Source: an uncultured Gemmatimonadales bacterium (GTDB lineage: Bacteria > Gemmatimonadota > Gemmatimonadetes > Gemmatimonadales > GWC2-71-9). From it: a DNA stretch of 64,000 nucleotides. The stretch spans positions 32,001 through 96,000 of the forward strand of contig CAWJMT010000031.1 of assembly GCA_963844035.1 (NCBI GenBank), read 5' to 3'. Positions 26,504-45,736 of the stretch are shown piece by piece. Every line of letters begins with the position of its first letter. Positions within the stretch are counted from its first letter, which is position 1. The translations under genes were made by a program, and so were the position numbers. The notes under the pieces are model-generated. The model was given only the letters and a program-made list of their open reading frames with translations, searched no databases and was not told where the DNA came from.

Positions 26504-26906
26504 CGTAGTCCACGTAGTTGCGCTCCGTCTCCCACAGACGGATCCGCTTGAGGGTCGCCGGCTTCAGCGCGGGCGCCAGGACGCGCCACGATACGACGGC
26601 GATGTTCTCCGCCGTGGGATTCAGCTCGGCAAACCAAGGAACGTCCAGGTTGAGATTCTTGTGGTCCAGGTGCCGCAGCAGGCACTCGGTGGCGATCTGC
26701 TTGATGCGCTGCACGTCCATCACGTACCCCGTCTCGGGATCGATGTCGCCTTCCACCGAGATCTCGAGGTTGTAGTTGTGGCCGTGGTAGTTGGGGTTGG
26801 CGCACACGCCGAACGTCGCCTCGTTCTCCGCGTCGGAGAGGCGCCGGTCGTACAACCGGTGCGCCGCGTTGAAGTGCACGCAGCGGGTGACTACGCAACG
26901 AGGCAT
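26493..26906 (-). CDS. 6-pyruvoyl-tetrahydropterin synthase, PTPS-II type (CX5HGH)
   Basis: [39 protein letters not shown]. Start MPRCVV with GGAGG RBS. Confidence 0.88.
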
Positions 26907-26946
26907 CGCTTGTTGGGCCTCCGGGGCAGGACTATATTCGGCTCGC

Positions 26947-28135
26947 GTGAGACTAAAGGTACTCGCATCGATCACCGCAGCGGGAGGCTCCGCCCTCTCG
27001 GCCCTGTGGACCTTCCCGAGTCTGCTCGCGTCCGCGTTCCTGGTCGCATGGGGCGCGGAGGCGGCCCAGTTCATCATTTCGCAGGGCCTCGCGCTCGCGC
27101 TGCTCGCGTGGCTCCAGACGCTGCCGGAGTTCGCGGTCGAGGCGGTGATCGCCTGGGACGCCGGCGCCGATCCCGAAATCGCCCACCTCGCGATCGCGAA
27201 CCTCACCGGCGCGATCCGCCTGCTGCTCGGGCTCGGCTGGCCGATGATCTACTTCGTGTTCGCGGCCTTCAGCCGGACGCGCGGGACGGAGCGCCTGCCC
27301 GTCATCCAGCTGCACCCCGAGCACGCCGTGGAGATCGTCGGCCTGGTGCCGCCGCTGCTCTACTTCGGCGTGATCCTCGCCAAGAGCCGCTTCAGCTGGG
27401 TGGACGCGATCGTGCTCGTGGCGCTGTACGTCGCCTACCTGTGGGTGCTGTTCCGCAGCCCGCCGCACGAAAAGGAAAAGGTCGCCGAGGCCCCGATTGT
27501 GTCCCAATGGGCGTACAACCAGCCGGGATGGCGCCGCTACGCGGCGATCGGCGGGCTGTTCGTGGGCGGCGGCGTGCTGCTCATGATCACGGTGCATCCG
27601 TTTCTCGAGTCGATGCTCGCCGTGGCCACGACCCTGGGCGTCAGCCACTTCGTGTTCGTGCAGTGGGTGGCGCCGTTCCTGTCGGAGTTCCCGGAAAAGG
27701 TTTCCGCGTTCTACTGGGCCCGGCGCGTGACGCACGCCCCGATGGCGCTCATGAACATGGTGTCGAGCAACATCAATCAGTGGACCGTCCTGGCCGCGAT
27801 GATCCCGCTGGTGTACGGGTACTCGACGTGGCACCACCATGGCACATGGATGGACTTCCACTTCGACGACGCGCAACGAGCTCGAGATCCTGCTGACGCT
27901 GCTTCAGACGGGCGTCGGCGTGATGCTGCTCGCGAACATGAAGTTCGACTGGATGGACGCCACCATCATCTTCGTGTTGTGGCTCGCGCAGTTCCTGCGG
28001 CCGAGCCTGCGGGAAGAGATCGCCGTCGCATACGGGCTCTGGATGGCGATTCTGGCCGTGGGCTTCGTGGTGCGTGGACAGGCGCTGCTCGCTCCGAGGT
28101 ACTTCTGGGACGTGGTTCGCCGCCGCATGTCCTGA
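26947..28135 (+). CDS. CaCA (Na+/Ca2+ exchanger-like) membrane transporter (frameshift near 27875)
   Basis: About 11 TM segments; alpha-repeat-like QTLPE...ANLTGA and SEFPE...NMVSSNINQ. Confidence 0.75.
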
Positions 28136-28377
28136 AACGCGATCGGCCGGACCCGCGTAATGGAGCCCGGCCGACCGGTTACAAGGACGAAGAGGGATAT
28201 TGAAGCCCGAAAGGAATCATTGGCCCTCACCGTAGCGTCTGTCTTCCCCGCGAAGGGGCATGACATAGGTTACAGTATGCGGGACCTCGGTCGAGCTGTT
28301 GGCTCAATAGTGAAACTCTCCGCCCCGCCAAAGCATTACACGGTGGCGCGACGACGTCAAGGAGATCGGTCACATCC

Positions 28378-31563: not shown

Positions 31564-32532
31564 TCATATCTCCCAGTTCGAGAACAACACGCCCCCGGAC
31601 ACCTCCGGCTCCGGGTACCCCTCGTAGGTCATGCGCAGGTCGGTCCACCGCACCCGGTATCCGCGCTCGACGAGATGCCGAAACGCCTGCGTGTGGCGCG
31701 TCTCGCACCGCACCGCGACGCGGCGGATGCCGGCCCGCGCCGCCGCGGCTTCGGTCGCCGCCATCACGGCACGGAAGGCGCGCTCGTCGCGGGCGGCCAG
31801 CTTGAGGATGCGCACCTCTTCCTTGGGCCGGCCCTCGGCGAGGGGCGCCGCGTGCCACACCACGAGCCCGTCGAGCCCGGTGGAGCCTTCGAGCAGCGTG
31901 GTGTCGCCGAGCCCGAGCTGCGCGGTGAGCAGGATCTCCCGCGTGAAGTCGGGGCCGCGCGCGAGCTGCGCAACGAGGCGGCTCGCCGCCTCCGTGGCCG
32001 CTAGCCGGTCGGCAGGCTGGCGCTGCGACATGAGCGCCGGCGCGGTATGACCCCGCGTCCCGATGTCGAGCGTCATGGTGAGGGTGAGGTGGCCGGGAGT
32101 GAACCCCAGACGGGCGTAGAACCCGATGTTCTCGACCGTGCGCGGCATGGTCTCGAGTCCCAGCGTCGTCACACCTTGATCCATCAGCCAGTCCGCGGCG
32201 GCGCGCACGATCCGCTTGCCGATCCCGACGCCCTGCTGGTCGGGGCGCACCGCGAGCGGGCCCATCCACCCCTCGGCGCCCGAGCGGTGCGCGATGTTGA
32301 ACGCGGCGATCTGGCCGGCGTCGTCACGCCACACCATGGCCCCGTCCCCCGCATCCTGCAGCGCATAGCGCCAGATCTGGGGATTGAGGTACGGGACGCG
32401 CACGCCGACCAGCCCGTCGCGCCGGTAGCGGTCCGTGAACGCGTCCGCGAACACGCGGTTCAGGCCTTCGATATCGCGTTCCTGGGCGCGCTCCGGCCCG
32501 GAGACGTGCCGCTCAGGCAGCCACGCCCGCAT
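31564..32532 (-). CDS. GNAT N-acetyltransferase (two-domain)
   Basis: MGPLAVRPDQQGVGIGK acetyl-CoA motif A, NIGFYARLGF; start overlaps the reconstructed Rad50 C-terminus. Confidence 0.85.
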   Translation of the reverse strand: MRAWLPERHVSGPERAQERDIEGLNRVFADAFTDRYRRDGLVGVRVPYLNPQIWRYALQDAGDGAMVWRDDAGQIAAFNIAHRSGAEGWMGPLAVRPDQQGVGIGKRIVRAAADWLMDQGVTTLGLETMPRTVENIGFYARLGFTPGHLTLTMTLDIGTRGHTAPALMSQRQPADRLAATEAASRLVAQLARGPDFTREILLTAQLGLGDTTLLEGSTGLDGLVVWHAAPLAEGRPKEEVRILKLAARDERAFRAVMAATEAAAARAGIRRVAVRCETRHTQAFRHLVERGYRVRWTDLRMTYEGYPEPEVSGGVLFSNWEI

Positions 32533-34941
32533 CGGCAGCCCCCAGGGTAGCGGTATCGTCCCGGACCACGCTCGTGCCTCGGGCGGGGTCGAAGTCCACG
32601 CGGATCACGCGATCGAGTCCCTCCCGTACCTGCTCGATGTGCGTGATGAGAATGACCTGCGGAAAGCGGTCGGCCAGGCGCCGCAGCAGCCGACGACGTG
32701 CTGGCGGCGGCTCTCGTCGAGCGAGCCGAAGATCTCGTCCAGCACCAGCAGCGAGAGCGGCTGGCCGGCCCGCTCGGCGATCATCTGCGAGATCGCCAGG
32801 CGCAGCACCAGGCTGGCCAGGTCCTCCTCGCCGCCCGAGATCACCGGCTTGGGAACGCCGTCGTCGAGAATGGTGACGTCGTAGTCCTCGTTCAGCTCCA
32901 GCTCGTGGTAGCGGTCGTCGGTGAGATCGGCGAGAAAGCGCGACGCGATCTCGCTGATCTCGGGCCGCATCGCGGCGTTCAGGTCGGCGCGCAGGTCGGA
33001 GAGTCCGCGATCGAGCTCGTTGTGCAGCCGCTGCCGGGTCTTGAGGACGGCGATGTGGCGCTCCTGCGCGGCCCGCTCTTCCTCCCGGCGCCCGGCCTCG
33101 CGCACGTCGCTTTCCGCCCGCACCAGCTCGCCCCGCGCCTCCACCAGCGCCAGATCGGCCTCGCGCAGCGCGCCCAATGCCCGATCGTACGCGTCCTTGG
33201 CGAGGCGGTACTCCTTCTCGGAGTATCCCTCGGCCGCGAGCGCGTCCGCCAGCTGCTTCACGCGTCCCTCCGCCTCGGACAGGTCGCGCTCGGCCGCCTC
33301 CGCCTCGCTCACCAGGCTGCTGGCACGCGCCGCCCGCTCCTCCAACGACGCCGCTTCGAGCGCCACCGGCTCGAGCTTGAGGAGGCTGGCGCGCACCGCG
33401 TCGTGGTGGGCGACGTCGTACCCCGTGCGACGCGTCGCCTGCTGCCGCTCCACGGCGGCGGCGCGCTCGCGCGCCGTTTCCAGCTCGCGCCCGGCCCGCA
33501 CCCGCTCCTCGGCCCGCGCCCGCAGCTCGCCCGCGCGCTCACTCGCGCGCCGGCTCTCGTCGCGCAGGGCATCGCGCGCCGCCTCAGCCGCCACCACCGC
33601 GGGTGGCGCGCTCGCGAGCTGATCCAGGCGCTGACGGAAATACTTCCCGTCTTCCACGATCGCCTGCAGCTGGCGGTCGAGCACGCCGAGCACCGCGGCG
33701 TGCTCGTCGCCGAGCGGGCGGCGGCAGGTGGGACACTCACCCTGTGACCCGAGCTGTGCGATCTTGTCGCGCTGCTCCTTCACGTCGTCGTATTGCGTGA
33801 GCAGCTCGGTCCGCTTGGTCTGGGCGTACTCCTTCTCCCGAACCCACGCGGCGCGCTGCTCCTCCACGGCCCGCGCGGCGGCCTGCCGGCCCGCTTCCAG
33901 CTCGCGCGCCTCCTGCTCCGCCTGTGCCAGCGCCGCCTCCGCGTCGGCCAGCTCGCCGATGCGCTGTTCCAGGCGCTGCATGGTGCGCGCCAGCTCATCG
34001 AGCTGGGCCTGGTCCGCACGCCGCGCGGCATCGGCCTGTAACAGCAATTCGAGTTCGGCGAGCTCCGCCTTGAGGCGCGCGACGGGAGCCAGCTCCGCCT
34101 CGAGCTCTTTCAGCTGGTCGCGGGCGCGCATCGCATCGGCCATCTCTTTGTCGAGCCGTTGAAATTCGTGGCGGCGGGCCAACACCCCGTGTTCCGCCAT
34201 GCGGCGCTCGCCGTCCAGGGACAGCGTCCGCTCGCGCCGCGCCACCCAGGCGTTCCAGAGCGGCTCCTCGCGCGCGCACGATTGCTGGGCGGCGTCCCGG
34301 ACCGCGCCCGCCTGCTTGGCCGCGCGGCGCGTGGCCGCCAGGCGTTCTTCCGCGCCGCGGCGCTGCTGGGCGAGCGCCTGCGGGTCGGGCAGCGCGGTCT
34401 CGAGCCCCCGCAGCTCGGCGGTGAGCGCGTTGCGTACCTCGCGCACCCGCTCCTGCGCGATCCGCAGGCGTTCGTACCCGAGCACCTGCGAGAGGAATGC
34501 GGCACGCTCGGTCTTGCCGAGCGACGCCATCACCGCCAGCTCCTTCTGTCCGGTGAAGTACGTGTTGAAGAACTCCGCGTGCGTCATGCCCAGCGTGCGC
34601 TCGAGCTTCTCCGTTACCGCCTTGAGCGAGTTCGCGACGGGCTGGCCGTCCTGGTACAGGACGGCGTTCGAGAGCCCGCGCGTCACGCGGTACTCGTGCG
34701 CGCCGAGGCGGAACTCGAGCTCCACCTCCACGCTCGCGCGGCCTTTCGCTCCGAGCCGGCGCACCGAGTCTTTGTCGCCCCGCACGGCCTGGAGCCCGTA
34801 GATGGCCCAGGCGATCGCTTCCAGGATGGTCGTCTTGCCCGAGCCGTTGGGTCCGAAAATCCCGGTGATCCCCGGCCCGAACTCGATCTCGGTATCGGCG
34901 TGCTGCCGGAAGTTGGTCAGATGGAGGCGGCGCAGCTCCAT
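32513..34941 (-). CDS. sbcC: Rad50/SbcC SMC-like ATPase (frameshift near 32690)
   Basis: Walker A GPNGSGKT, long coiled coil, central CPTC zinc hook, ISGGE signature, LLVLDEIFGSLD, then FPQVILITH in the shifted frame. Confidence 0.92.
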
Positions 34942-36113
34942 CAGCTCGGCTCCTCCCGCCCCGCCTGCTCTACGTACTCGACCCCCAGCCGCACGAATTC
35001 CGCGCGATCGAGATCGGCGTCGAGGGGGCGACGCTCCAGGAAGTCGTGCACCGTCTCGGGGAGGGTCTGGCGCTGGCCGGAACCGCCCGTGGCCGCGACG
35101 CGATGCACCGCAGGGCGGCGGAGATCGAGATGGAAGTGCAGCGCGCGGGACTTGAACCCGCGGATGGCGGCGTGGTCCAGCTCGCGCGCCGTCGACCGCG
35201 AGACGTCGAACACGAGGAGCCGGACAACTTGATCGTCGATCGCGGGCTTCGCGGCGGCGACGGCGGCGGCGATGCGCTGGTCCAGCTCCTTGGGAGTGAG
35301 TCCCTTCCCCTGGATCGGGGGGAGGTCTACATGACGGCGCACCGGCGCAATCGGCCGGACGGTCACTCTGGCTCCCGGTAGCTCCACCAGCAGATAGCCT
35401 TTGCCGATGCGCCCCTTCTCTTCCTCATCCTGCAGCTGGCCCCAGGGGTTGGGCGGAAGGTACTCGAGGGTTCCCGAATACCAGGCGTTCGCTGCCACCT
35501 GCTGGACCTCGTGGTAATGACCGAGCGCCACATAGTCCCACTGCGCCGGAGCGAGATCCTGCAGATCGATCGGTGCGCCCCCGTATTCGGCTGTGCCGCG
35601 AGTCTCTCCAACCCCGGGGAGCTGCGCGTGAACGACGAGGACGTTGCGCGTCGTTCCCCGCTGGGGGCGCAGGGACGGACGCTCCGCCTGCATCAACGCC
35701 TGATGCGGCACTGCGAGCACCGCACAATCGAGCTTGGGGTAGGTCAGCCGTCGCGCCTGGTCCACGACGACTTCCACGCCGAGCGCTTCGTACAAGCGCA
35801 GGATCGTGCCTGTCTCGACCGAGCGCGGCGTGTCGTGGTTGCCCGCGATCATGACGACGGGCGCATCCGGCAAATCCGCGCGCAGGCGCTGCAGCTGTTG
35901 AAACAGAAACAGGATCGCGGAATTGGTGGGCCGGACGGAGTGAAAGATGTCGCCCGCCAGGACGATCAAGTCGGGACGCTGGGCGATGAGGTCGTCCACC
36001 GCGCGCCGGAATGCCTCCGCGATGTCGGCCTCGCGCTGGTTACTCCCCCGTGGCGTCTGCCGCTCGTACTGGCGGAACCCGAGGTGCAGATCGGCGAGGT
36101 GGGCGAGCTTCAC
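34941..36113 (-). CDS. sbcD: Mre11/SbcD metallophosphoesterase nuclease
   Basis: DLHLG, AGDIFH, GNHD, VHA, LGHYH, YSG motifs; stop/start coupled to Rad50. Confidence 0.92.
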   Translation of the reverse strand: MKLAHLADLHLGFRQYERQTPRGSNQREADIAEAFRRAVDDLIAQRPDLIVLAGDIFHSVRPTNSAILFLFQQLQRLRADLPDAPVVMIAGNHDTPRSVETGTILRLYEALGVEVVVDQARRLTYPKLDCAVLAVPHQALMQAERPSLRPQRGTTRNVLVVHAQLPGVGETRGTAEYGGAPIDLQDLAPAQWDYVALGHYHEVQQVAANAWYSGTLEYLPPNPWGQLQDEEEKGRIGKGYLLVELPGARVTVRPIAPVRRHVDLPPIQGKGLTPKELDQRIAAAVAAAKPAIDDQVVRLLVFDVSRSTARELDHAAIRGFKSRALHFHLDLRRPAVHRVAATGGSGQRQTLPETVHDFLERRPLDADLDRAEFVRLGVEYVEQAGREEPS

Positions 36114-36117
36114 CCGC

Positions 36118-37009
36118 TCACTTCGCCTCGCGCAGCTCGAGCGTGGTCGACTGCTTCGCGGTCACGGTCGTTCCGTCCGCCATGCCCCCCCGGATGTGGA
36201 TGCGCACGGTCCCGCTCCTCGACGAGCGCAGCACGGCACCCCGGCGCACGGAGAACCGCTGTTCCCCGGTCAGGCGTCCTGACAACTTGAGGGTGAGGAC
36301 ATGACCCTCCTGCATGACCTTGATCGGGTCGCTGGGGAACGTGGTCTCGAGTGCGACCCGCAGCGTGGTGTCGAGCTCGCTGGCTTCGATGTCCTTCACT
36401 GTGAGTTTCGTCTTCGCCTTCAAGGGGCTGCCGCCGGTCATCTCCCCGAGTGGCGCCTCGACCTCCACGGTCCACGAGTCCCCAACGCCGACGGCTCGGG
36501 TGGGCAGGGGGAACGCCGCCTCCTTCAGACTCTTGCCGAACTGCTGGGCGAGGGGCGAGGGCTGCGCGCCGGCGTTGAGCAACTCCGCCCGCACGACAGT
36601 CATGCTGGAATCGTACACCACGGCGCTCGTGAGCCCCACGATGTTGTTGAGGGCTCGCCGAGCCGGATTCGCCGCCATCAGGGGCGAGTCCAGACGGGTG
36701 GAATCCACCCTGGCGGTGACTGCGATGCCCCCTGTGGTCGGGCCATTCACCGTCTGGGTGAATTGCATGTGCATCGCCATCTGCTGCTCGGGTATCTTCG
36801 CGGTCGAGTCCCCTTCGAACGTGATGTCGAAATACTGATCCAGGTTGTAATGATAGACTGCCCCCGCCGGCGGGTGGTACGTCAGGGTCACCTTGGTCGC
36901 GTCGCCGCCGCCGCACCCCACTGGCAGCCGCGAGGGCCGGAAGGATGGCGGCGAAGAGCAGCCAGCGCGACGCGAGCGTGGAGCGGTCCCTCAGATCAGT
37001 ACGGGTCAT
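36118..37009 (-). CDS. Beta-rich lipoprotein of unknown function (frameshift near 36918)
   Basis: Reconstructed MTRTDLRDRSTLASRWLLFAAILPALAAASG-C lipobox; FPLPTRAVGVGDSWT motif (DUF6263-like, uncertain). Start overlaps the herA end. Confidence 0.65.
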
Positions 37010-38957
37010 CGCCGATCGGATTGAGCGGCGGCACGGCCTCGCGCGGCCGGTCGGGCGCCGCGGCGGCCACCCGCTGTCCCAGGGCGCGCCGGAACACACC
37101 GAGCGGATCGTCGGAGCGCGCCCGCCGGGTCGAGGCGAGCGCGCGGCGGACGTCGTCGGGCGTACGGTCCGCGATCAGGTCCTTGATCTGGTTCGGCCGC
37201 GCCCGGGAATCGAGCCGCACGAGCTGGCGCACCACGGCGTCCTCGAACGGCAGGTCGGTGGCCGGCGGAAACCGCTCCACGCCGTCCCGGCCGCGCAGCA
37301 CCGCGGGCCGCGGAAACCGCACGAAGATCGGCTGCGTGAAATGGGGATGGCGCACCATCAGCTCACCCACGGGGAGCGTGGCCAGCTTGATCTTGATCGC
37401 GGGTGACAGCACCTGGTATCCCGGCGTGGCCAGCTCGTCGTAGTCCATCCGGCCGTACACGGTCGTCGCGGCGTTGCCGACCACGCGGCGGTGGATTTGC
37501 GAGCGGAATTGCTCGGCGCCGAAGAGCACGAGGCCAAGGTAACGTCCGCGCTCAGAGATATCGAGCAACATCTTTTTCACGTACGTCTCCGGTCCGTCCG
37601 CCGATGCGTACTTGTTGAGCTCGTCCACAAACACCACCACCGCATCGACTCCCAGGTCGCGCCGCTCGAGGTGCTCGCGCAGTTTGGAGACGACGCGCGC
37701 AAACACGAGGTCCTGGCCGAGCAGATCCACGTTCGCCACGTCCACCACGTACACGGTGCGGTCCTCGAGCGAGCCCCAAGGCAGATCGTTCGACGGCCCG
37801 TCGTCGGCAACGAGACCCTTGCAACGCGTCGAGATGTTCGAGAGGCGGTTCCGCACCTTGCGGATCGTCGCGATATGGTGGGTGCGCCACATGTCGCCGC
37901 GCCCCGCCGACTCGAGCCCGTCGAAGATGGCGCGAAACAGCGCGTCGAGATCGGCGAACGTCTGCACCCGGTGGGTGCCGCCGAAGCCGTCGGCGAAGTC
38001 CTTGTTGAGCACGCGGTCGGAGAGAAAGTCGATGAACGCGTCGGCCTTCGCGTCGATGTCGTCTCGATTCAACAGCACTTCGGCAAAATCGAGCACTTCC
38101 TGGAGGCCCCACACCAGCGGCTCGACATCACCCACCAGCTCGGGGTGGGTGCGCAGCGTATTGAGGTTCACGCCGTCGGCCTTGAAGGGCGCGTAGTAGC
38201 GCACGCCGGCAAACGGCTGTGGCGCGATGCCGAGCCGTTCGTAGCGGCGCCGATCGGCATCGTCGAGGCTGCCCGGCTGGTCGAGAAAACAGAGGTCGGG
38301 CCCTTTGACGTTGAAACAGACCGCGGCGACCTTGCCCTTGTGCGCCGGGAAGTGCTGAAAGATGGAAGAGAGCAGGAACTCGACCGCACTCGTCTTGGTC
38401 GCGAGCCCCGACACACCGGAGATGTTCAGGTGCGCCGCTTCGGGACCGAGCAGGAAGTCCGCATCGAGATAAACGGGAGCCTCGAGCCCCCCGGATGTGT
38501 AGAGGCCGAGCGGAATCCCGGTGGGCGTGGCGGAGGTGAGATACGCGTCCATGCGGAGCGCTTGCGCGACGTCTGCGTCCGTCGCCACGAACACCTGCCC
38601 CAGCGGCACGGGTTGCAGCGGCTCTTCCGGCTGCTGGCGCAGCACCGCGGCGGTCCACAGGCGGATTTCCTGGCGCATCGTGGGATTCTCGGCAGCGCGG
38701 GCGGGGTCCCCCTCCGCGCCGATCACGTCGTGCAGCGGGGTCGCCAGATCCGAATACGCGAACCCGTCAGTCACCACACCGTGCACCACACGTTCCCCGT
38801 TGCCCGTTCCCCGTTCCCCGTCTTCGACGCGGACGATGGCCCCGATGCCGATCGTGGTCTCGGTCGCGGTCCAGAAATGGAATTGATGCGGCGTGGCGGG
38901 CTTGAGCTCGGTTGCCACGACGCGGCCGATCGGGACGGCACTGCTGCGCTGGATCAC
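36996..38957 (-). CDS. herA: HerA-family ATPase/translocase
   Basis: N-terminal HAS-like barrel, variant Walker A ISGVSGLATKTS, VCFNVKG, Walker B VVFVDELNKY, RGRYLG, GAEQ. Confidence 0.82.
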   Translation of the reverse strand: MIQRSSAVPIGRVVATELKPATPHQFHFWTATETTIGIGAIVRVEDGERGTGNGERVVHGVVTDGFAYSDLATPLHDVIGAEGDPARAAENPTMRQEIRLWTAAVLRQQPEEPLQPVPLGQVFVATDADVAQALRMDAYLTSATPTGIPLGLYTSGGLEAPVYLDADFLLGPEAAHLNISGVSGLATKTSAVEFLLSSIFQHFPAHKGKVAAVCFNVKGPDLCFLDQPGSLDDADRRRYERLGIAPQPFAGVRYYAPFKADGVNLNTLRTHPELVGDVEPLVWGLQEVLDFAEVLLNRDDIDAKADAFIDFLSDRVLNKDFADGFGGTHRVQTFADLDALFRAIFDGLESAGRGDMWRTHHIATIRKVRNRLSNISTRCKGLVADDGPSNDLPWGSLEDRTVYVVDVANVDLLGQDLVFARVVSKLREHLERRDLGVDAVVVFVDELNKYASADGPETYVKKMLLDISERGRYLGLVLFGAEQFRSQIHRRVVGNAATTVYGRMDYDELATPGYQVLSPAIKIKLATLPVGELMVRHPHFTQPIFVRFPRPAVLRGRDGVERFPPATDLPFEDAVVRQLVRLDSRARPNQIKDLIADRTPDDVRRALASTRRARSDDPLGVFRRALGQRVAAAAPDRPREAVPPLNPIGDDPY

Positions 38958-39958
38958 GTGCCCGTCTTCGGAAGGCGGGAGGTGGACCGCGGGAGCAGAT
39001 CCCGGGGGGCGCGGGTCTTCAGATACGTCTCCACATCATGAATGGGGTAAAGTAGCCGGTCCCAGCGCGGGTCGGGGGTGGAGATCGGCGCGCGCTCGCG
39101 CACCAGCCAGCCGCTCGCCCGGGACGCGGCGGCCACGCCCTCGTCGCGCGCGCACGCTTCGATCCGCAGCAGGCCGAAGAGCAGGTCATTCCCTTCCCAC
39201 GGCCACAGCCGCAGGTACCAGGAGAAGACCTGGTGCCGCGCCCGGCCGCGCGGCCGAAACACGCTCGTGCGGTGCAGCGCCGGAAGGGTGAGCGCGCGGG
39301 TCAGATCGTCGCCCTCGAAGTACTGCGCTCCGTGGCTCTTGATCACACCGAGCGCGCGGGGGTGATCGGCCAGGACGGCGGACTCGGAGAGCACGCCATC
39401 CACCACCAGCCACTCTTCCGGCGCGAGCGAGCGCACGTGCCGCTCGCCCACGCTCTTCTCGACGGCGACGCGGATGTTCTCGACCGCGCGCCGCGCCGCT
39501 TCGAGGGCGCGTCCCGGTTGCGCCGCCTCCTCCGCAACATCCACCAGCTCGATCCCGCTGGCGTCGAGCGCGGCCCGCACGCCGGGGCGCAGCGCCTGGA
39601 GTGAGGCGACGTGGAATTCGCGCGTCGCTTCCACCACGGTGCGGAGCCGCCGTCCGGCGGCGCGGCGCCGCACCGCTGCGGCCACGTGGGCCCGCACGAT
39701 CGGCACGACGCCGTCGTAGTAGGTCACCTTCCAGCGCTGGATACCGTCGAGGAACGACACGACCGGAGGAGGCGATGCCGCCGTGTCGACGGCGTGCACC
39801 CGGAGCTCGGCGTCCTCCACCAGCTCGGCCCCCGCGACCTCTGTCAGATCGGTCCGCCCCAGGCTCTCGTCCGGGACGTGCGACGCCGGCACCGCACCCG
39901 CCGCCACTAACGCGTCGGTCCAGCGCGCGGCCAGGGTCAGCGGGTCCTCAGGGCCCAA
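38954..39958 (-). CDS. nurA: NurA-like RNase H-fold nuclease
   Basis: FLDGIQR, WLVVDGVL, GVIKSH, DPRWDRLLYPIHDVETYLK; GTGA overlap with herA. Start uncertain (39940 or 39958). Confidence 0.72.
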   Translation of the reverse strand: MGPEDPLTLAARWTDALVAAGAVPASHVPDESLGRTDLTEVAGAELVEDAELRVHAVDTAASPPPVVSFLDGIQRWKVTYYDGVVPIVRAHVAAAVRRRAAGRRLRTVVEATREFHVASLQALRPGVRAALDASGIELVDVAEEAAQPGRALEAARRAVENIRVAVEKSVGERHVRSLAPEEWLVVDGVLSESAVLADHPRALGVIKSHGAQYFEGDDLTRALTLPALHRTSVFRPRGRARHQVFSWYLRLWPWEGNDLLFGLLRIEACARDEGVAAASRASGWLVRERAPISTPDPRWDRLLYPIHDVETYLKTRAPRDLLPRSTSRLPKTGT

Positions 39959-41296: not shown

Positions 41297-41812
41297 TCAG
41301 GCGGTGGCCTCAAGGTTGGGGAATGGCGGCACCTCCGCGAGCCACAGCCCGGCGATGCGGGCCTGTTTGTCGACTTCGACCAGGAGGTGGTCGGCCACCC
41401 GTACGACGCTGACCGGACGCGGGCGCCCGAACCGCAGGTGGAAGACGGTTTCGCCGGCGTTCTTCTCGACCGTGAGCGCCGTGTCCACCTCGACGGCCGC
41501 CACGCCGGGCTGCGATTTGCGGCTGGGGAACACCACGCGGCCGTCCTTCGCGGCGGCGGGCGTCGCCAGGTCGGGCATGGTCCGCACCTCGTCGGGCCAG
41601 GCCACCACATCCACGCCGCGCAAGCTGCCGCCCGCGACGTCGATGACCACGAACGAGCCGTCGGCGCCCGACAGGTCCACGGTGCCGTTGAGCCCCTTGG
41701 TGGTCGCGCCACCCTTGCAGGCGACCGAGAGGATGTCGGTTTCCGGGTCCCAGCGGTAGGTCACCTTGGGAAGGGCTCCGGACAGTGGCTCAATGCGCGC
41801 TTCGAGGTTCAT
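41297..41812 (-). CDS. Hypothetical protein, possibly tandem DUF2283-like domains
   Basis: YRWDPETDILSV and LLVEVDKQARIAGLWL resemble DUF2283 ends; first gene of the long minus-strand operon. Confidence 0.6.
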   Translation of the reverse strand: MNLEARIEPLSGALPKVTYRWDPETDILSVACKGGATTKGLNGTVDLSGADGSFVVIDVAGGSLRGVDVVAWPDEVRTMPDLATPAAAKDGRVVFPSRKSQPGVAAVEVDTALTVEKNAGETVFHLRFGRPRPVSVVRVADHLLVEVDKQARIAGLWLAEVPPFPNLEATA

Positions 41813-43099: not shown

Positions 43100-44287
43100 T
43101 CAGTCCCTGAGTTTCTTCGCAAACTCCACGATCTTGCCAAGCGCCCGTTCAACGTCGTTTGTCGCTGCGGCATAGGACATCCGCACGTAGCGATCGTCTC
43201 CAAAAGCGGCGCCCGGAACCATCGCTACACCGGTGGTGGTAATGAGCCGCGTACAGAACTCCGTCCCGCTGATGCCCCCGAACGAGTCCACTCGAAAGAA
43301 GAAGTAGAAGGCGCCCAACGGATCGACGAACTCCACGCCGGGGAGGTCACGTCGGAAGCGCCCGACGACGATATCGCGGCGCTTGCGGAATTCGGCGACC
43401 ATCCGTAACACGTCTTGCTCCACCCGCTCGTCGGCGAGCGCGGCCGCGGCGGCGTATTGCGCCGGATGATTGGCACCGGTCGTCGTGTGCGACTGCAGCG
43501 CCGCCATCGTCTTGGCCACCTTCGACGGGGCGAGCGCCAGCCCGATGCGCCATCCCGTCATCGCGTACGCCTTGCTCACGCCGTAAATCACGATCACGCG
43601 CTCGAGCATCTCGTCGGGCAGATCCAGGAACGACGGCGCCGGGCCGGGGCCGTAATGGATCCGCCGATAGATCTCGTCGGCGATCACCCAGACCTTCTTC
43701 TCCATGGCCCACTGCGCGATCGCCTTGATCTCGCCGTGCGTGTAGACGCCGCCGGTCGGGTTGCAGGGAGAGCACAGGATCAGTCCCTGCGTGCCGGGCA
43801 CCACCCGATCGAGGTCGCGCACGCCGACCTTGAGACTCCACTCCGGGTCCCCCGGCACGAGCACGGGACGGGCGCGCGCGAGGTGGACGATCTGCGGATA
43901 CGACACCCAGGCCGGCGCCGGAATCGCCACGACGTCGCTCGGGCCGAACAGGGTGAAGCAGACGTTGAAGAGCGACTGCTTGGAGCCGTTCGAGACGACG
44001 ATGTTGTCGGCGTTGACGGGGCGGCCGCCCGAGAGCACGGAGAGATGCTTGGCGGCTGCGGCACGCAGCTCGAGGATCCCCTCGTTCGCGGGATAGTGCG
44101 TCTTGCCGTCGCGGATCGCCCGCATCCCCGCCTCGGTGGGAATCGACGGCGTGGGAAAGTCGGGCTCGCCCGCGCCCAGGTCGATCACGTCCTCCCCGGC
44201 GGCGCGCCGCCGCTTGGCTTCCTGGGAGATCGCGATCGTTGCCGAGGTTTCGAGGTGCTGCAGGTTGGGTGAGAACCCTTGGCTCAT
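43100..44287 (-). CDS. PLP-dependent class I aminotransferase (aspartate aminotransferase-like)
   Basis: GEPDFPTP, GSKQ, SPCNPTG, DEIY, SKAYAMTGWRIG. Confidence 0.92.
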   Translation of the reverse strand: MSQGFSPNLQHLETSATIAISQEAKRRRAAGEDVIDLGAGEPDFPTPSIPTEAGMRAIRDGKTHYPANEGILELRAAAAKHLSVLSGGRPVNADNIVVSNGSKQSLFNVCFTLFGPSDVVAIPAPAWVSYPQIVHLARARPVLVPGDPEWSLKVGVRDLDRVVPGTQGLILCSPCNPTGGVYTHGEIKAIAQWAMEKKVWVIADEIYRRIHYGPGPAPSFLDLPDEMLERVIVIYGVSKAYAMTGWRIGLALAPSKVAKTMAALQSHTTTGANHPAQYAAAAALADERVEQDVLRMVAEFRKRRDIVVGRFRRDLPGVEFVDPLGAFYFFFRVDSFGGISGTEFCTRLITTTGVAMVPGAAFGDDRYVRMSYAAATNDVERALGKIVEFAKKLRD

Positions 44288-44312
44288 GCGTCAATATCCC
44301 CACGCGCAATGT

Positions 44313-44340
44313 GTGCGGGCAAGGCATGCCTTGCCCCTAC
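44313..44340 (-). repeat. GTAG-type REP element
   Basis: Minus strand reads GTAG-GGGCAAGGCATGCCTTGCCC: a GTAG foot followed by a perfect 20-bp palindrome (44317-44336). Confidence 0.65.
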
Positions 44341-44400
44341 CCCGCCCGGACGCTAGCATCCCGCCAGCACAAGAACCGCCCTTTGACAATCGAGGATCGT

Positions 44401-45691
44401 GTGACGACGGTAGATGAGGCCCGGGCCGCGCTCGAGCGCGGCCGCCCGGTGGTATTGGTGACGCCCCCCGCGCCGGATCAGGCGGGAGCACTCTGGGACC
44501 TGGTGGGCGCGCCGGGGGAAACCCCCAAGGGAAGTCCCGCGCTGGTCATCGTGTGCGCTGGCGAGGGTTTGCCCGCCGAGTGGGCCGCCGCGGCACCCAG
44601 CGACCGTCGGCTCCACGCCGTCACCGGCCTGCGCCGCAGTGAGCGCTGTCTCCGCGACCTCCCCATCGGCGCGCTCGCCGGCACCGTCGCCGATCTCTCG
44701 GCGCTGCTCTCCCGTTCCGCGCTCAAACTCGACACCGTTTCGACCATCGTGGTCGCCTGGCCCGAGCTGCTCATCACCACCGAGCAGGCGGGCGCGCTCG
44801 ACACGCTCCTGAGCGCCGCCACGAACGCCCGGCGTGTGGTGCTGAGCTGGAATCCCGGCATGCTCAGCGACTTCCTGGAGCGGCACGCCCGCCGCGCCGA
44901 GGTGGTGGGAGGGGCGCCGACGTACGACGGCGCGCCCCTGTCGCCCATCGGACCGGCGCGCTACGTGGTCGCGTCCCGTTCCCGCCACGCCGCGTTGCTC
45001 CAGGACGCACTCGATCTGCTCGATCCGAAGCACCCCTTTCGTCTGGGACGGAGGTCCCTGCGATGCGGGCGATGCTCCCGACGCCGTGTTCTGCCTCCGG
45101 CTGCCCACCCGCGAGCAATTCGCGCTCTTGTCGCAGCGGGGCGAGCCGATCGTGTTCCTGGACGCCTCCCAGCTCCCATACCTCCGTTCGATTGCGGCGC
45201 CGCTCACGCCGGCGCGGCTGCCGTCCGCGGCCGATCGGGCCCAGGACCGCGCGCAGGCTATGCGCACGCGGATCGCACAGCTGCTCGAGACGCGGCAGCC
45301 CGACGGCGAGCTCGCGGTGCTGGCGCCGCTGTTCGAGCGTTTCGATCCCGCCGAGGTCGCGGCGGCTCTCCTCGCGATACTGGGGGACGAGGGACGGGGG
45401 AAGGGGGAAGAGGGCGTTCCCGCCGCCGCACCAGCCACCGGTGGCTCAGTGCGGGTGTTCGTCAACGTCGGCACGAAGGACCGCGCCAGCGCCAAGGACC
45501 TGGTCGGCGCGCTCATCAAGGAAGTAAAGATCGGCAAAGGAGAGATCGGCCACATCGACGTGCGGGAGACGTTCAGCGTCGTCGAGGTCGCCGCGGGGGT
45601 GGCGGAGCGCGTGGTGCGGGACCTGTCGGGCGTGACCATCCGCGGGCGCCGCGCGATGGCGCGTCTGGATCGCTACAACTCGCCCGCGTGA
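44401..45691 (+). CDS. Degenerate DEAD-box-like protein with C-terminal DbpA RNA-binding domain (frameshift near 45040)
   Basis: C-terminal VFVNVGTKD...DLVGAL...IGHIDVRETFSVVEV...TIRGRR is DbpA-like; N-part GTVADLSALLSRSALKLDTVSTIVVAWPE aligns by eye with helicase motifs Ib-II. Confidence 0.7.
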
Positions 45692-45710
45692 TTCGAGTCC
45701 CCAAACACTG

Positions 45711-45736
45711 ACGGGCCGCCCAGCGGGGCGGCCCGT
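45711..45736. terminator. 11-bp stem hairpin between converging genes
   Basis: ACGGGCCGCCC-AGCG-GGGCGGCCCGT. Confidence 0.65.

Follow-up and report, generated by a model that had tools for sequence, protein, structure and literature searches.

A type-B NurA-HerA pair joined to Mre11-Rad50 in a conserved Gemmatimonadales gene block

When a bacterium carries nurA, herA, mre11, and rad50 side by side, does it possess the archaeal machine for DNA end resection, or a block that bacteria put together for themselves? The question is raised by a 64,000-nucleotide stretch of DNA from an uncultured Gemmatimonadales bacterium (contig CAWJMT010000031.1), here called the window, in which six minus-strand genes run in series from 39958 to 31564. 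An initial annotation had read this series as a complete archaeal-style operon that is rare in bacteria. The six genes and the motifs named for them were found where they had been placed. The reading that we lean toward is that the block is a housekeeping locus for the processing of DNA ends, likely assembled apart from the archaeal operon, with Mre11-Rad50 as its core and NurA-HerA as a predicted accessory, and likely of use in mending DNA breaks. The genes are as follows, in the order of transcription.

38954-39958, minus strand: NurA nuclease of type B, a second bacterial subfamily; 334 amino acids (aa); from fold model, Foldseek, VIA, profile, and tree; start codon uncertain
36996-38957, minus strand: HerA ATPase/translocase of type B; 653 aa; from phmmer match to the 7f6d HerA, motif counts, and tree
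36118-37009 (open reading frame [ORF] 36118-36921), minus strand: DUF6263 lipoprotein, a variable insert; Pfam PF19777, E 1.5e-6
34941-36113, minus strand: Mre11/SbcD-family phosphoesterase nuclease; Pfam Metallophos and NCBIfam; single copy in the genome
32513-34941 (ORF as assembled 32605-34941), minus strand: Rad50 ABC-ATPase with a CPTC zinc hook, archaeal-Rad50-like; NCBIfam
31564-32532, minus strand: GNAT acetyltransferase, 322 aa; Pfam PF00583, E 1e-13

The first protein was not recognized as NurA by Pfam, NCBIfam, PADLOC, or a single-sequence search of the PDB; only a fold search and a deeper profile identified it. The Pfam NurA family, PF09376, has no match in the window protein and matches 11 of 22 aligned homologs at E<=1, the best at 4.9e-6. 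The structure model (predicted local distance difference test [pLDDT] score, 82.5) has the RNase H-like NurA fold that the initial annotation had supposed. Foldseek searches with this model ranked first the NurA of Deinococcus radiodurans (7f6d_G, E 1.7e-12), T. maritima TM1739 (1zup), and S. solfataricus NurA (2ygk), and VIA alignment to these three structures gave Z scores of 18.8 for the D. radiodurans protein, drNurA (root mean square deviation [rmsd] of 4.0 over 275 aligned residues), 17.9, and 13.3. A 22-row profile of the family retrieved drNurA (7f6d_H) at E 1.1e-32. Residues D71, G72, D187, G188, K207, R298, and E310, which include the conserved FLDG69 and VVDG185 motifs, are invariant in all 22 rows, and the profile alignment sets D71, K207, and R298 against drNurA D53, K201, and R309. 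By analogy with the NurA family, the protein is predicted to be a Mn-dependent nuclease that forms a toroidal dimer and a 2:6 complex with HerA. All of its named homologs come from Gemmatimonadales or Gemmatimonadetes.

HerA likewise went unnamed by Pfam and NCBIfam, and DUF87 (Pfam) had no match among the window proteins. Its sole PDB sequence match was D. radiodurans HerA, drHerA (phmmer, 7f6d, E 4.6e-42), aligned over residues 10-288 and 318-561, a homology that takes in the HAS barrel and the RecA domain. The motifs GVSGLATKT181 and FVDELNK443 are present, and K188, T189, D221, D445, and E446 align with drHerA K175, T176, D220, D487, and E488, residues of the Walker A motif, the catalytic acid, and the Walker B motif. 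The epithet "archaeal-style" thus does not suit this pair, as its closest solved relatives are proteins of Deinococcus and Thermotoga.

The motor departs from drHerA at its pore. A453 and T511 stand where drHerA has R495 and R552, both essential for translocation according to the structural study (PMC9960219). Both positions are nonbasic in 28 of 28 Gemmatimonadales-type HerA rows. We compared these with type-A HerA, the subfamily of D. radiodurans, using a GTDB scan with HerA alignments that was ranked by a Longimicrobiales-type query; its best 80 of at least 600 loci are not a random sample, and 79 of these 80 rows carry the pore arginines, as do 10 of 12 rows from two other families of the phylum (f7 and f8). 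An arginine of the β4-β5 loop (conserved R485) is kept in at least 27 of the 28 Gemmatimonadales-type rows, and this loop is a DNA contact in FtsK, as noted in the same study (PMC9960219). The structure model adds a C-terminal four-helix domain at about residues 570-626, followed by a conserved DPY tail. This lineage-specific domain (window 36999-37295, minus strand) had no profile match and no clear fold in our searches, the best Z score being 5.8; a likeness to the DnaD domain 2i5u (Z 5.0, with an rmsd of 2.6 over 59 residues) is at most a lead.

A rough regular-expression search for the W8/pin motif of NurA gave a parallel picture, with matches in 55 of 59 type-A rows, 1 of 23 Gemmatimonadales-type rows, and 0 of 85 type-B rows. 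In quick, unrooted trees of NurA (27 rows) and HerA (43 rows), the Gemmatimonadales proteins grouped with type B and split from type A with a Shimodaira-Hasegawa-like approximate likelihood ratio (SH-aLRT) support of 100 in both, in trees that have long branches and biased composition. Pore positions vary within type B: among 71 proteins scored, 24 have arginine at neither position, 23 and 16 at one or the other, and 8 at both. To judge by these sequences, NurA and HerA are members of a second bacterial subfamily, type B, and not a local decay, since type B was brought up by a search of representatives at 50% identity. The missing pin and pore residues set the pair apart from the Deinococcus type.

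Mre11 (motifs DLH8, AGD53, GNHD91, and GHYH198) and Rad50 (GPNGSGKT30, CPTC403, and SGGE702) are each single copy in the genome. Mre11 scored 83.7 bits with the NCBIfam model Mre11_Sulfo and 72.8 bits with sbcd, both below cutoff. The window Rad50 scored 165 bits with PRK03918 versus 83 with TIGR00618 SbcC, and intact Rad50 proteins from Gemmatimonadales scored 205 to 207 bits with the archaeal PRK03918 versus 98 to 106 with the bacterial SbcC model. In two type-A clusters from elsewhere in the phylum, SbcC showed the reverse preference, with 259 and 237 bits for the SbcC model versus 75 and 81 for PRK03918. The best PDB matches of Rad50 are entries that, going by their codes, we take to be archaeal Rad50. 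All of the archaeal-leaning Rad50 scores lie below the curated cutoffs, and Rad50 look-alikes occur in other bacteria too.

The initial annotation held the catalytic motifs to be intact. This is so for the motifs that it named; the H-loop (ITH) of Rad50 is absent from the ORF as assembled, in which the reading frame switches at 32688/32689. The missing tail lies in another frame, ends at 32513, and overlaps the start of the GNAT gene by 20 nucleotides (nt). The break is probably an indel error of the assembly, because Rad50 is intact in 27 of 27 proteins from Gemmatimonadales-type loci, because related soil contigs (four runs from one study) have one extra base at this site, and because other genes are split alike. 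The sequencing runs matched at most 0.34 of the words, none across the whole stretch, and represent relatives rather than this strain. The lipoprotein signal peptide, which begins at 37009, is out of frame with the body of the protein, probably by another assembly indel to judge from inspection of the frames, and the uvrD and recQ-like genes of the genome match in pieces across several frames. Apparent single-base indels split a membrane protein gene (26791-28203), the lipoprotein gene (36920), rad50 (32688), and a helicase-like gene (44239-45711), and uvrD is split likewise at G000:C3:202958-203999. The assembly looks indel-prone, and apparently broken genes in it call for caution.

To assess conservation, we sampled the phylum evenly, taking 200 genomes of at least 90% completeness, of which 140 belong to the order and 60 do not; one (G172) is unpublished. 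Within the order, GNAT was retained in 140 genomes, Mre11 in 139, HerA in 127, and NurA in 112. These nested counts point to a core of mre11-rad50-GNAT, to which HerA is usually and NurA less often kept. HerA occurs without NurA in 16 genomes, and at loci L036, L041, and L085 nurA is cleanly deleted, leaving herA immediately after the upstream gene. In five herA-negative genomes, a type-B HerA profile, run without a positive control, found no match. Nearly all of the 28 genomes that lack NurA have mre11 and GNAT, and an obligate four-protein machine is therefore unsupported. Co-conservation in relatives held: herA, an optional insert, mre11, rad50, and GNAT stand in this order in 20 of 20 related loci, nurA precedes them in 18, so that all five genes are present in 18 of 20, and, among six additional loci of the order that are complete, 4 carry the four-gene block. 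A quick HerA tree of 56 rows, including 16 of the 80 GTDB rows, follows genus and family labels, with members of the same genus, of family f1, and of family f2 falling together. The block is vertically inherited across Gemmatimonadales.

The most constant partner is the GNAT acetyltransferase, which follows rad50 in 20 of 20 loci (L031-L050). At E<=1e-20, all 140 genomes sampled from the order have it and 0 of 60 outside do, which makes it an order-specific marker. Searches with it returned generic GNAT matches only. We considered a role as a DNA-marking enzyme and give it low odds, as genomes devoid of nurA and herA still carry the gene. The lipoprotein was matched in 5 of 20 related loci.

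The setting of the block is that of a housekeeping region. It sits after an aspartate aminotransferase gene in most of the 20 loci. The genes overlap or nearly abut, as had been described, at nurA/herA (-4 nt), lipoprotein/mre11 (+4), and mre11/rad50 (-1), and the overlaps do not stop at nurA: those of -22 and -4 nt continue through the ubiG-like and O-methyltransferase genes upstream, so the block forms part of a longer housekeeping string. The G+C content at third codon positions (GC3) is 0.83-0.91 in the six genes versus 0.79 in five housekeeping genes of the window, and overall GC is flat, which agrees with the earlier view that the block was not recently acquired. A scan of the locus for promoters and terminators gave results at chance level, and the SOS-box pattern GTTC-N7-GTTC had no site near the locus. 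Of the 20 related loci, 12 have upstream of the block a gene for a 167-aa protein without a Pfam match, which in the window lies at 41297-41800, minus strand.

The supposed rarity of such an arrangement in bacteria did not hold up. In the GTDB scan, 60 of the best 80 loci hold a complete herA-sbcD-sbcC-nurA cluster, as do 52 of the 53 whose flanks are long enough, mostly from Actinomycetota. Within the phylum, 12 loci of families f7 and f8 (L068-L079) have such clusters in two gene orders. These f7/f8 clusters are of the actinobacterial type, combining type-A NurA and HerA with a bacterial SbcCD, and their genomes also have AddAB. The four genes nurA-herA-sbcD-sbcC are likewise carried by a cyanobacterial conjugative plasmid, and a megaplasmid of Pontibacillus sp. 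ALD_SL1 (NZ_CP062975.1; L173:1940-8549) has genes annotated nurA-ATPase-phosphoesterase-SMC, with a Rad50 of Gemmatimonadales type. The ATPase of this plasmid was not matched by the type-B HerA profile, and the cluster is possibly another independent assembly. A published case is that of Oceanithermus profundus, in which sbcD-sbcC lie downstream of herA (hepA) and the SbcCD genes are interpreted as having been recruited (Blesa et al. 2017, PMC5448004). A 2026 review has bacterial nurA without consistent synteny to the herA, mre11, and rad50 genes (PMC13748450), which our four-gene counts contradict. Our literature search, which did not extend to subscription papers, listed nothing on this locus in Gemmatimonadota. 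Clusters of the four genes in bacteria may have been described as early as 2004, by Iyer and by Constantinesco. Four-gene blocks are common in bacteria; what is new here is a type-B NurA-HerA pair that lacks both the pin and the pore arginines.

These comparisons place the locus among known systems. The D. radiodurans NurA-HerA (PDB 7F6D, 7WRW, and 7WRX; PMC9960219) is the best solved match and has the same catalytic residues and overlapping nurA-herA genes, and its host, like Gemmatimonadales, is poor in RecBC/AddAB and rich in RecJ-RecFOR. The pair studied here differs in being type B rather than type A, in lacking the W8/pin motif, in its replaced pore arginines, in the extra C-terminal four-helix domain of HerA, and in its linkage to mre11-rad50-GNAT. 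The actinobacterial herA-sbcD-sbcC-nurA clusters and Oceanithermus (PMC5448004), the latter compared by description only, similarly unite in a bacterial block HerA, a pair of the Mre11/Rad50 family, and NurA; the clusters that we examined join type-A NurA-HerA to a bacterial-type SbcCD, whereas here type B is joined to a Rad50 that scores as archaeal. The archaeal herA-mre11-rad50-nurA operon of Sulfolobales and Thermococcales, as described in the review (PMC13748450), shares the four functions in one block, a pinless NurA, and a CXXC-hook Rad50. The Gemmatimonadales block differs in the bacterial subfamily of its NurA and HerA, in gene order, in a NurA that roughly a fifth of the order does without, and in the appended GNAT gene. 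It does not belong to the archaeal system, since its NurA and HerA are of bacterial kind and the genes are not retained as a set of four; its likeness to the archaeal and Deinococcus systems would lie in the way it works.

The archaeal look is likely convergent, given that a bacterial type-B NurA-HerA, found elsewhere without mre11-rad50, stands beside a Rad50 that scores best with archaeal models. The four functions appear to have been clustered at least three times, in archaea, as type A with SbcCD, and as type B with a Rad50-like protein, and repeated clustering with different subfamilies suggests selection for linkage and argues for real cooperation. The most economical course of events would be that, in an ancestor of these bacteria, a type-B nurA-herA pair came to lie upstream of an mre11-rad50-GNAT set that was already there.

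Type-B relatives have a different habitat. We examined the best 80 of 572 metagenome loci and 20 loci of a viral collection. Of the long loci, 34 of 35 in the former set and 13 of 13 in the latter had type-B nurA-herA but no mre11-rad50; type B clustered with a Rad50-like protein was also seen at locus L221. A GHKL ATPase gene follows herA in 30 of 74 metagenome loci (of the best 80) and in 17 of 18 viral-collection loci with enough flank. This GHKL/HATPase gene encodes about 530 aa and lies directly after type-B herA in 47 of 92 loci with sufficient flank, often near defense genes and in contigs of the viral collection, within the set L216, L219, L224-L227, and L229-L275; examples of nurA-herA-GHKL loci are L243:6826-12933 and L259:6807-13143. 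In five loci compared, the GHKL gene is followed by a further conserved gene of 540-630 aa, and the whole is a candidate defense cassette. Neighboring genes in 16 loci, scanned by a selection of their ORFs (53 and 29 of 95), often belong to defense systems and include OLD/Gabija-like, SIR2, WYL, HipA, GmrSD, DruA, Ppl, type IIG restriction-modification, and integrase genes. The cassettes thus share the NurA/HerA subfamily of the Gemmatimonadales block and are unlike it in being mobile, defense-like, and without mre11-rad50. TdpAB (PDB 8WFD/8WET), chain G of which is a fold match of NurA at Z 13.0, is grouped with such mobile, defense-like systems without mre11-rad50; the Gemmatimonadales locus is fixed and housekeeping.

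In light of these relatives, NurA-HerA, perhaps primed by Mre11-Rad50, might destroy incoming linear phage or plasmid DNA and so take over the immunity role of RecBCD/AddAB. The defense-like settings of sister pairs fit such a role, as does the repeated loss of NurA, and an antiviral function of HerA-NurA has been suggested in print (PMC13748450 and PMC12977600). However, that idea, which the initial annotation had raised as an adaptation against phages and plasmids, draws on these relatives and finds nothing to feed on in the Gemmatimonadales locus itself. PADLOC 2.0 gave no match for NurA and, for HerA, none beyond mad8 at E 3e-5; the locus has a fixed place among housekeeping genes and a composition like that of the host; its presence in 80-91% of the order would be unusual for a defense system; and no Gemmatimonadales-type HerA was found on plasmids, where the best matches had 26-35% identity. 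We regard a present defense role as unlikely.

A bolder possibility, to which we would give similarly little credence, is that a defense-type NurA-HerA was domesticated, coupled to an archaeal-like Mre11-Rad50, and so re-invented the archaeal resection machine, with loss of AddAB. The motor would then have been rebuilt to take only ends opened by Mre11-Rad50, as the absent pin, the absence of the canonical pore arginines, the FtsK-like β4-β5 arginine, and the new C-terminal domain could indicate, and GNAT would serve as a regulator.

A further alternative has the four proteins standing in for AddAB as the chief machine for double-strand-break resection in Gemmatimonadales. Nucleases of the AddAB type are indeed scarce: within the order, 26 of 140 genomes had a PF12705 match at E<=1e-20 (44 had a match of any strength), compared with 55 of 60 outside it, RecC turned up in none of 5 genomes, and no nuclease of the AddA, AddB, or RecB type was found in the host genome, which is 83.7% complete, using PF12705 and tblastn with 12 AddA/AddB parts. 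In families f1 and f2, any PF12705 match was rarer in genomes with NurA (31 of 112) than in those without (12 of 25; Fisher P = 0.058), and the contrast was weaker for strong matches (18 of 112 versus 7 of 25; P = 0.16), the kin in both comparisons not being independent. Neither comparison gives the clear anticorrelation that a strict replacement of AddAB by NurA within the order would entail. Moreover, 13 of the 137 f1 and f2 genomes have neither NurA nor any PF12705 match, and family f7 has strong AddAB matches in 24 of 24 genomes beside 11 loci with a type-A four-gene cluster. Other routes also remain in the order: RecJ was found in 44 of 46 genomes, RecR and RecO each in 5 of 5, Ku in 4 of 5, and a RecQ-like helicase, below its family cutoff, in 5 of 5. 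That 13 of 137 genomes do without both an AddAB-type nuclease and NurA, and that RecJ and RecOR remain, makes NurA-HerA likely accessory, and the replacement of AddAB is in our estimate improbable. Near-complete genomes in which neither NurA nor an AddAB/RecB-type nuclease was found comprise G028 and G030, of family f3, in addition to the 13 of f1 and f2; all of these would rely on RecJ-RecFOR and Mre11-Rad50.

It is least probable that nurA-herA, mre11-rad50, and GNAT are two or three separate modules that share a housekeeping transcription unit without cooperating, since, even though the overlaps reach unrelated methyltransferase genes, variable inserts lie between herA and mre11, and mre11 and GNAT persist where herA is missing (13 of 140 genomes), the same four functions have come to be linked three or more times, by way of different subfamilies.

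For the housekeeping reading that we lean toward, the gene identities, their conservation, the placement in subfamilies, the scarcity of AddAB, and the presence of RecJ, RecO, and RecR are shown, whereas the order of assembly, each biochemical step, and any physical cooperation are inferred, the scheme of action by analogy with characterized homologs. Mre11-Rad50 would bind broken, blocked, or hairpin ends and trim them. A HerA hexamer would then pump the opened end through a NurA dimer, which would degrade mainly the 5' strand. Like the archaeal protein, this NurA has no pin that would split the duplex, and opening of the end may have to be done for it by Mre11-Rad50. RecJ, with the RecQ-like helicase and RecFOR, probably carries out the main long resection and the loading of RecA, as in Deinococcus.

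Several points weigh against this scheme. With the pore arginines replaced, the motor may work differently or may not translocate double-stranded DNA. Deletion of nurA-herA raised resistance to UV and mitomycin in D. radiodurans (PMC9960219), and the HerA-NurA of T. kodakarensis cuts both strands, its authors suggesting an antiviral role (PMC12977600). The archaeal likeness of Rad50 is apparent from hidden Markov model and PDB rankings below curated cutoffs, and the trees, which are quick, unrooted, and long-branched, contain no archaeal sequences. Adjacency alone does not amount to cooperation, the more so as variable inserts part herA from mre11.

The block is a variant, and a useful one, but no machine of a new kind. 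Its interest lies partly in the fact that even for archaea and Deinococcus there is no agreement on what HerA-NurA does, with resection, restraint of repair, and antiviral action all in contention. If domestication did occur, the order would offer a mesophilic bacterial model for cooperation between NurA-HerA and Mre11-Rad50 and a case of a defense nuclease turned into a repair enzyme. Gemmatimonadales are an abundant soil order, mostly without AddAB, and their natural knockouts, with or without NurA, HerA, and AddAB, make them a testable mesophilic system.

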